683 bases of DNA from Escherichia coli (GTDB lineage Bacteria; Pseudomonadota; Gammaproteobacteria; Enterobacterales; Enterobacteriaceae). The stretch is from assembly GCF_003334335.1 (NCBI RefSeq), contig NZ_QOWQ01000158.1; one strand, 5' to 3'. Shown here piece after piece: positions 63 to 665 of the stretch (the first letter of the stretch is position 1; every line of letters starts with the position of its first letter). The notes beneath the pieces were generated by a model. The model saw nothing but the letters and a program-made list of their open reading frames with translations, had not been told where the DNA came from and ran no database searches. Position numbers and translations under genes: made by a program.

Positions 63-665
63 TCATGGCATGGCCATGAGCATTTTCACGTCCGCATCAC
101 CGTCTGCCGACGTCTGTGACACGCCACCCTGCACGGCTGCCGGTGAATGGTTCGCCATGATGCGTTCAAACATGGCGGTTGTGGATGCAGAAACCGGTTC
201 TGCTTTATCCGGCGATGAGGACAGAATGTCGCGGGCAGCCTCCACCGTCATTCCGGGAAACGCCGCCAGTTTTTCAGCCTGCGCCTCAGCCCCTTTTGCC
301 TCATCCAGAGCCATAATCTGATCACGGAGTGAGGGTCCGGCATCCGCCTGCGGTGAAGCCGCCAGGATCGGGCGGGCTTTTTCCACCGTCATATCCGGCA
401 TCGCCGCCAGCGTTGCCGCCAGTTGTTCACGACCTTTAGCTTCTTCACACGCCATAATGCGATCGGCTTCACTCTGCGTGGATGCCACCAGCTGCTGTGG
501 TGCTGCCGCGGTCAGAATCGCCCGGGCCTGTTCAACGCTCATGCCCTGTTGTCCTGCCAGCATCGTGGCAAGGTGTTCACGTCCTTTCGCTTCCTGACAC
601 GTCAGGATCCCCATCACTCGCTGGTTCTCCTGCGCGGCAGCTTCCGTTGCAGTTAATTGCGGCAT
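63..665 (-). CDS. Putative phage prohead scaffolding protein (lambda Nu3-like), 200 aa, alanine-rich with three internal tandem repeats. It may instead be the in-frame C-terminal part, or internal-start product, of a longer head protease-scaffold gene that continues beyond position 683.
   Basis: Seen in sequence: it is the longest ORF and spans nearly the whole window, with ATG at 665..663 (plus-strand 'cat') and TGA stop at 65..63. AGGAGG lies 4 nt upstream. The three protein repeats are conserved while their DNA differs at synonymous positions: the EAKG motif is GAA GCG AAA GGA in repeat 1, GAA GCT AAA GGT in repeat 2 and GAG GCA AAA GGG in repeat 3, which indicates selection on this reading frame. 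Inference: the Ala/Glu/Gln-rich, probably helical composition and the position just upstream of a decoration-protein-like gene suggest a scaffold; lambda Nu3 is about the same length (~200 aa, from memory). The product assignment is less certain than the existence of the CDS. Confidence 0.8.
   Translation of the reverse strand: MPQLTATEAAAQENQRVMGILTCQEAKGREHLATMLAGQQGMSVEQARAILTAAAPQQLVASTQSEADRIMACEEAKGREQLAATLAAMPDMTVEKARPILAASPQADAGPSLRDQIMALDEAKGAEAQAEKLAAFPGMTVEAARDILSSSPDKAEPVSASTTAMFERIMANHSPAAVQGGVSQTSADGDADVKMLMAMP
210..608 (-). repeat. Three degenerate in-frame tandem repeats (about 141-150 bp, 47-50 aa each) inside the scaffold-like CDS, with a partial fourth unit starting near 161
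   Basis: Repeat units at protein level: 498..608 (ILTCQEAKGREHLATMLAGQQGMSVEQARAILTAAAP), 351..458 (IMACEEAKGREQLAATLAAMPDMTVEKARPILAASP) and 210..317 (IMALDEAKGAEAQAEKLAAFPGMTVEAARDILSSSP). Unit starts are spaced 150 and 141 bp apart. A truncated fourth unit (ERIMANHSP) lies at about 141..167. Codon usage differs between units at synonymous sites. Confidence 0.75.

Follow-up and report, generated by a model that had tools for sequence, protein, structure and literature searches.

Gene content and organisation of the locus

The window considered in the current analysis, by which we mean the whole stretch of 683 nucleotides of DNA, has one convincing gene, as judged from the list of open reading frames and their translations. 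It lies on the minus strand at 63..665 and encodes a protein of 200 residues followed by a stop codon. At the level of DNA the gene shares 92% identity with gene 6 of phage 21 (M81255, OL657228), and with Escherichia phage PhiR5_1 (PV340545) its identity is 100%. In the phage 21 records this ORF is described as gene 6, an analogue of the scaffolding protein Nu3 of lambda, and is nested in the frame of gene 5, which corresponds to the protease gene C of lambda. The 200-residue protein matches PHROG 53 (E=1e-74) as well as PHROG 8399, and the C-terminus of lambda Nu3 can be aligned with its own C-terminus; searches of this protein for a Pfam domain, an NCBIfam family and a PDB sequence relative found none.

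The order of genes in the PhiR5_1 and phage 21 records is portal, protease/scaffold, decoration (D) and major capsid (E). The capsid gene that follows the decoration gene in PhiR5_1 is of the lambda-E type (PF03864). The gene has all the sequence-level features that define the lambda C/Nu3 - phage 21 gp5/gp6 family and is by these features a member of it. An earlier reading made from the sequence alone (hereafter the sequence-only reading) had treated the product as the scaffold of a protease-containing phage, and this is borne out by the matches to phage 21 gene 6 and the PHROGs and by the S49 protease gene in which the ORF is nested. The family is already known, and the tail shared by its two products is an ordinary and expected feature of it. 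The features referred to in the text are as follows.

63..665, minus strand: Nu3-type scaffolding ORF (gene 6), from the ORF list, the identity to PV340545 and phage 21, and PHROG
666..683, minus strand: in-frame upstream continuation into the last stretch of the protease region of gene 5; the open frame runs up to the edge of the window, and a 501-residue CDS is annotated
216..650, minus strand: three helical repeats of about 45 residues ('Tri boxes') at about 507..650, 357..470 and 216..329, from the Tri1, Tri and Tri3 boxes annotated in M81255 and from AlphaFold2
141..170, minus strand: FERIMANHSP box, from alignment A1, the AlphaFold2 helix and the periodic motif
105..140, minus strand: AAVQGGVSQTSA, the variable Gly/Ser linker, from allele variation, A1 and low pLDDT
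66..104, minus strand: DGDADVKMLMAMP, acidic patch and terminal hydrophobic motif Phi-Phi-x-x-P, from conservation, charge and predicted helix
63..65, minus strand: stop codon TGA common to genes 5 and 6, from the translation
1..26, minus strand: start of the decoration gene (shp / D analogue) with its ATG at 26..24, from the translation MVTKTITE and the phage annotations

An antisense ORF running over the tail at 70..321 on the plus strand was considered and rejected as a mechanical ORF opposite a well-supported gene. The OL657228 record also annotates two 'CII binding sites' (TTGYN6TTGY) inside gene 6 on the opposite strand (L002:2516-2529 and 2750-2763), which appear to be mere pattern matches and are situated away from the tail.

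A protease and a scaffold with a common C-terminus

The reading frame upstream of the scaffold methionine is open to the window edge (HDTGGT-M), and a CDS of 501 residues with the same end has been annotated in PV340545, M81255 and OL657228. Residues 146-293 of the 501-residue product are assigned to Peptidase_S49 (PF01343) with an E-value of 2.6e-35, and partial matches to SppA are found in NCBIfam. The predicted fold of this protease domain resembles SppA, the best structural match being that of B. subtilis, including the entry 4KWB, with TM scores of 0.84-0.87 (relative to the target). A GGAGG sequence is located at 674..670, 5 nucleotides upstream of the ATG at 665, and is annotated as a ribosome binding site in the phage 21 records; the internal start at 665 is accordingly a putative one, proposed from this sequence and its annotation in phage 21.

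Because the scaffold ORF lies in frame inside the protease gene, the tail ends both the scaffold and the protease. By its reading frame, it is the common C-terminal end of the predicted S49 head-maturation protease (gp5, C type) and of the putatively internally initiated scaffold (gp6, Nu3 type). The sequence-only reading had left out both this sharing of the tail by the protease and the FERIMANHSP box described below. The annotation of the two products differs among the records: only the long ORF is annotated in PV340545 (L003:2116-3621), where it is named 'Nu3' and is given without a nested scaffold CDS, and the phage 21 records have both.

Frameshifted read-throughs of the gene are present in the databases, for example P0026 and P0104, which both end in …INRRFLQYG[ND]EN[HY]H, as well as P0019 and P0052, and are artefacts of assembly or annotation rather than variants of the tail. 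An ORF of 20 residues on the minus strand at 4..66 of the window overlaps the stop of the gene, and the frameshifted database proteins run into other frames.

The tail, the repeats and the FERIMANHSP box

The minus strand of 66..140 translates to AAVQGGVSQTSADGDADVKMLMAMP, which is followed by the stop at 63..65. Direct repeats in the DNA are confined to 262..650 and the tail lies outside them, so that a non-repeat C-terminal tail following the repeats, as claimed from the sequence alone, is confirmed. To let it start at A176 is an arbitrary choice, since the C-terminal region outside the repeats begins near residue 151. The tail of phage 21 differs from the present one by a single residue (S183A). 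A six-residue stretch with at least 3 Met occurs somewhere in the protein in 37% of shuffles; Met-richness specifically of the last six residues has a p value of about 0.005, in a test picked after the sequence had been inspected. The composition alone of the tail is within chance, and it is its conservation that makes the tail non-random.

Immediately upstream of A176, in the region of residues 160-175 (141..188), is the sequence FERIMANHSP, comprising residues 166-175, whose conservation exceeds that of the greater part of the tail itself. M170 of this box, which has the form F/L-[DE]-x-Phi-M, is invariant and P175 nearly invariant in the 22 tails of alignment A1. A motif x[DE/Q][R/Q][I/V]M is found at residues 15-18, 68-71, 115-118 and 167-170, spaced by 53, 47 and 52. 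Since the box takes up again, at the regular spacing of about 50 residues, the xERIM with which the three Tri repeats start, it probably represents the first helix of a fourth repeat that has been truncated. The number of scaffold repeats differs among relatives, with one in lambda and three in the 21 type and in P0097, and the architecture of the tail is kept regardless.

Conservation of the tail

Homologues were collected by a word-indexed search together with an exhaustive search of representatives, and 22 distinct tails having 28-85% identity to the query were aligned (A1). P200 is invariant in all the aligned tails, and the position corresponding to L196/M197, three residues before P200, is always occupied by a hydrophobic pair (ML, LL, LM or LI). 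The 16 residues of which the conserved Pro is the last are net acidic in 22/22 tails, with a charge of -1 to -4. The stretch between the FxxxM box and the terminal motif varies in sequence as well as in length. The tail of lambda reads LDRLM…NPASDAVNDLLNTPV, and tails from Salmonella assemblies, which we assign to the Gifsy type, have FDQFM…SSDVDTDTQLLMSIPGT and then as many as 11 further residues. In about one third of the class-1 tails the Pro is followed by 2-13 additional residues, and a free C-terminus at this residue is therefore not required.

The variation among close alleles was examined in IMG/VR loci obtained through a 7-sequence alignment; this search recovers only close E. coli alleles (83-100% identity) and is informative for allele variation rather than for diversity. 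Codons variable at the amino acid level among the 41 distinct alleles number 6/12 in AAVQGGVSQTSA, 2/13 in DGDADVKMLMAMP and 48/165 in the rest of the gene, and each of the two variable codons of DGDADVKMLMAMP is changed in a single allele. The last 13 codons are thus the least variable part of the tail. Only 4/39 of their nucleotides (66..104) vary among 44 haplotypes, as against 22% for the rest of the gene. The intergenic stretch from the stop to the ATG (27..62) varies at 11/39 positions, the conserved island ending at the stop codon. Since the conserved stretch stops before variable intergenic DNA, the constraint appears to act at the level of the protein. Across the 3' part of the window no DNA varies less than these last 13 codons, and codons 187-192 have no synonymous change at all, in counts too small to interpret.

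The sequence-only reading had proposed the tail as a possible determinant of capsid interaction or processing, to be checked by the conservation of the C-termini of homologues. The terminal motif is indeed conserved, in 22 relatives down to 28% identity and in the 41 alleles, and the Gly/Ser linker is variable. The Gly/Ser stretch does not hold as a determinant; it is the most variable segment and behaves as a spacer. The Met-rich end emphasised in that reading is found in the phage 21 lineage only, the corresponding residues being LLNTPV in lambda and LLMSIPGT in the Salmonella type, and from the aligned tails Met-richness is a trait of the phage 21 lineage. Taken as a whole, the earlier interpretation is partly supported.

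In more distant S49-scaffold proteins the box is retained, together with a leash that is acidic and rich in Gly, but the ends are different, for example …ILADFxxATGxK, …SLLVAAGKSITG and …ARLKSFI. Three loci with tails of the …SLLVAAGKSITG type (L086, L090 and L091) encode contractile-tail proteins (Phage_base_V, Phage_tube and P2_GpU) downstream of the capsid gene, and are head-tail mosaics that combine lambda-type head genes with contractile-tail genes. In another locus (L092:2611-5248, ENA k141_801914) the genes for the capsid, the decoration protein and the S49-scaffold (P0144) occur in reversed order. They are adjoined by a D5/Pox_D5-type primase and a Nu1-like small terminase, and portal and large terminase are absent within 9 kb. 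The scaffold P0144 ends in yet another motif, …RRIDELAACHGR. This locus looks like a capsid-encoding phage satellite.

Predicted structure

The full 501-residue protein was modelled with AlphaFold2 on an alignment of 20 sequences (A6). The protease domain, whose putative catalytic residue Ser162 is invariant in A6, is predicted with confidence, and the three small helical repeat domains have pLDDT values of 82-91. A weak helix is predicted over STTAMFERIMAN (gp5 461-472) with pLDDT 53-62, most of AAVQGGVSQTS is disordered (pLDDT <50), and a weak terminal helix is predicted over ADGDADVKMLMA with pLDDT 45-53. Searches of the PDB for sequence relatives of the scaffold part found none.

A second model was made of a fusion of the capsid protein, a Gly/Ser linker of 30 residues and the last 85 residues of the scaffold (alignment A5). 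The rows of A5 are full fusions paired arbitrarily within each type, and hence are without a true co-evolution signal. The terminal helix is predicted again, with pLDDT 49-62, and the leash remains below 50. As judged from pLDDT, the difference between 49-62 in the capsid fusion and 45-53 in the protease context is within noise. Neither the fusion model nor the 501-residue monomer gave a confident docking of the tail on the capsid protein or the protease.

Comparison with known systems

The direct homologues of the present genes are C/Nu3 of lambda and gp5/gp6 of phage 21, which have the same gene layout with an in-frame nested start. The end of the lambda protein follows the same pattern, LDRLM...acidic...DLLNTPV. 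Lambda and the 21 type differ in the number of repeats, one as against three, and in the terminus, which is PV in lambda and Met-rich in the 21 type.

The scaffolds of P22 and 80alpha bind the capsid through a region at their C-terminal end (PMC11922011). The present tail would resemble those of P22 gp8 and 80alpha in this terminal placement of a capsid-binding determinant, on a scaffold that is for the most part helical or flexible. The two differ in that the tail described here is acidic and is predicted to form a single short helix after a disordered leash, and there is no sequence relationship. The coat-binding element of P22 is a basic helix-turn-helix, and an element of this type (about 30 residues) was not found in the tail as judged by charge, predicted structure and PDB search.

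The maturation protease of HK97 reportedly has a C-terminal capsid-targeting tail. The resemblance is that of a short C-terminal segment which addresses the protease to the interior of the procapsid, with the difference that here the scaffold too would be addressed. The HK97 protease belongs to a different and unrelated family, and the HK97 scaffold is a delta domain fused to the capsid protein (PMC10275583). By analogy, the tail probably works like the scaffold ends of P22 and 80alpha and the targeting tail of the HK97 protease, without being a member of their families.

The catalytic domain of B. subtilis SppA (4KWB) has the same S49 fold as the phage protease, and the likeness is limited to that domain. 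SppA is a membrane-anchored cellular peptidase. In the phage protein the tail is separated from the catalytic domain by scaffold repeats amounting to about 200 residues. The gpO protein of P2 is a fusion of protease and scaffold in one polypeptide, in which the protease is N-terminal and the scaffolding part, required for assembly of the capsid, is C-terminal. It differs from the present system in its protease family and is not known to have a nested scaffold gene.

A possible role of the tail in capsid docking

The tail is best explained, in our view, as a flexible acidic leash that ends in a short hydrophobic capsid-docking motif and is common to the scaffold and the protease. We would assign a probability of about one half to this reading. 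The leash would be the disordered, variable, Gly/Ser-rich and acidic part, and the terminal motif would have the form D-x-D-V-x-Phi-Phi-x-x-P, represented here by DADVKMLMAMP. This motif, possibly folding to a short helix on binding, would dock on the lambda-E-type major capsid protein, at the face which that protein turns to the interior of the procapsid, and the acidic residues of the tail may face the basic N-terminal arm of the major capsid protein. By carrying the same address label, the scaffold and the protease would both be co-assembled inside the shell. The protease would afterwards degrade the scaffold and itself, and the products would leave. The capsid protein as partner and the docking itself are what we infer here; the identity of the gene, its nesting and the pattern of conservation are shown, and disorder and a helix are predicted from the models.

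The first 35 residues of the capsid protein contain 6 Lys/Arg and 2 Glu, and we infer that such a basic arm would suit an acidic partner. An interaction of Nu3 with E has been reported from a yeast two-hybrid screen in lambda (PMC3224144). In MD8-like phages the protease, the scaffold and the capsid protein are encoded in one gene, and the last ~40 residues of the lambda scaffold have no counterpart there (PMC8508860), as would be expected if a covalent link replaces a non-covalent tether. Literature searches on the C-terminus of Nu3 or on the function of the tail in the lambda and phage 21 systems found no paper among those accessible.

Six lineages were compared, and loci of all three tail classes were examined. 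The loci of all the three classes share a module consisting of terminase, W, portal, S49-scaffold, a decoration protein (HDPD) and a capsid protein (Phage_cap_E). The identities of the 21 type to the lambda group, which has the same tail class, and to the lineages with class-3 tails are as follows.

Portal: 61% to the lambda group, 60-63% to the class-3-tail lineages
Protease domain: 61-62% to the lambda group, 56-59% to the class-3-tail lineages
Capsid protein E: 58-61% to the lambda group, 52-57% to the class-3-tail lineages
Decoration protein D: 48-53% to the lambda group, 31-38% to the class-3-tail lineages

This suggests that the tail class goes with the shell proteins D and E more closely than with the portal, as weak evidence, since the covariation comes from three lineages only, in effect from one phylogenetic split, and the effect in E is small. 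The low pLDDT of the tail in the fusion model and its unlikeness to the basic helix-turn-helix of P22 count against capsid docking. Distant relatives whose capsid proteins belong to the same Pfam family end in quite different motifs, which also speaks against it, and the extensions after the Pro in about one third of class-1 tails speak against the need for a free end in such docking.

Alternative explanations

A possible though clearly less probable reading is that the hydrophobic C-terminus occupies the S49 active-site groove, in cis or between neighbouring subunits, as in SppA. It would there either hold the protease inactive until assembly or be the first site of self-processing, and on Nu3 it would be an entry point for degradation, which gives a concrete form to the 'processing determinant' of the sequence-only reading. 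The terminal motif is rich in Leu, Met and Ala, in which it is like the hydrophobic core found in signal peptides, the substrates of SppA. The best structural matches of the protease domain include 4KWB, which was solved with its own C-termini in the active sites, and the C-terminus of B. subtilis SppA has been proposed as a negative regulator or inhibitory propeptide removed by self-cleavage (PMC7568657). The tail has pLDDT of only 45-53 in the AlphaFold2 monomer of 501 residues, a point tempered by the fact that a monomer model cannot reveal an active site formed between subunits. Against this reading, the protease domains of tail class 1 and class 3 (56-61% identical) are as close to each other as those of 21 and lambda (61-62%), yet the tails differ, and the acidic leash would have no obvious role. 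The known cleavage sites of the family amount to the portal leader annotated in lambda; this site, ...REYA|GYH, was compared with the tail, one site being too few to define a specificity. Occupation of the groove is compatible with capsid docking and the two could hold together. The shared tail would in that case be both an address and a safety catch, its motif resting in the S49 groove of a neighbouring subunit until docking on the capsid frees the groove and starts proteolysis after assembly. We regard this combination as improbable, more so than either the passive or the portal-directed tail considered below. If it were true, scaffold copies would compete for the capsid sites and so set the ratio of protease to scaffold.

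That the tail is a passive disordered end, serving as a spacer or a solubility element or being the decayed remnant of a fourth repeat, and has no specific partner, seems to us doubtful. The low pLDDT throughout the tail, the highly variable linker, the likeness of the FERIMAN box to a truncated repeat and the tolerance of Gifsy-type versions for extensions beyond the Pro are all in keeping with it. They are set against an invariant terminal Pro and a hydrophobic pair conserved down to 28% identity, and against the last 13 codons that vary least among 41 alleles while the adjoining linker varies freely. Slightly less credible still is a motif directed to the portal, in which the tail would bind the B analogue and help to form an initiator complex of portal, protease and scaffold. 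The portal does not group by tail class (21 against lambda 61%, against class 3 60-63%), and with about 12 subunits it is scarce relative to the scaffold copies that bear the tail. The lambda literature lists Nu3 as needed for the incorporation of B and lists C-B and Nu3-B interactions, but the two-hybrid screen detected no interaction of B at all (PMC3224144). A constraint on the DNA or RNA, by which the last codons would be conserved as a signal for translating the downstream decoration gene, is very unlikely. It would account for the low nucleotide variation of the last 13 codons (4/39 against 22% elsewhere in the gene), and there is a promoter-like match at 54..27. This match is however weak (9/12) and outside the tail, and the intergenic stretch, which is the expected seat of such a signal, varies at 11/39 positions. 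There is no Rfam match, and the motif is kept in the protein across relatives whose DNA has diverged. A scan for promoters and terminators gave one weak match each, the terminator count being about that expected by chance and its match lying outside the tail.

Significance

The placement of protease and scaffold in shells of the lambda type and the timing of proteolysis are still poorly defined, even for lambda. The outcome of the current analysis is a precise and testable definition of a conserved element, which consists of Phi-Phi-x-x-P preceded by an acidic leash. With its roughly 10 conserved residues and its presence in both proteins, the motif offers a small and precise target for mutagenesis, and it could also be used as a tag by which cargo is brought into capsid shells of the lambda type.
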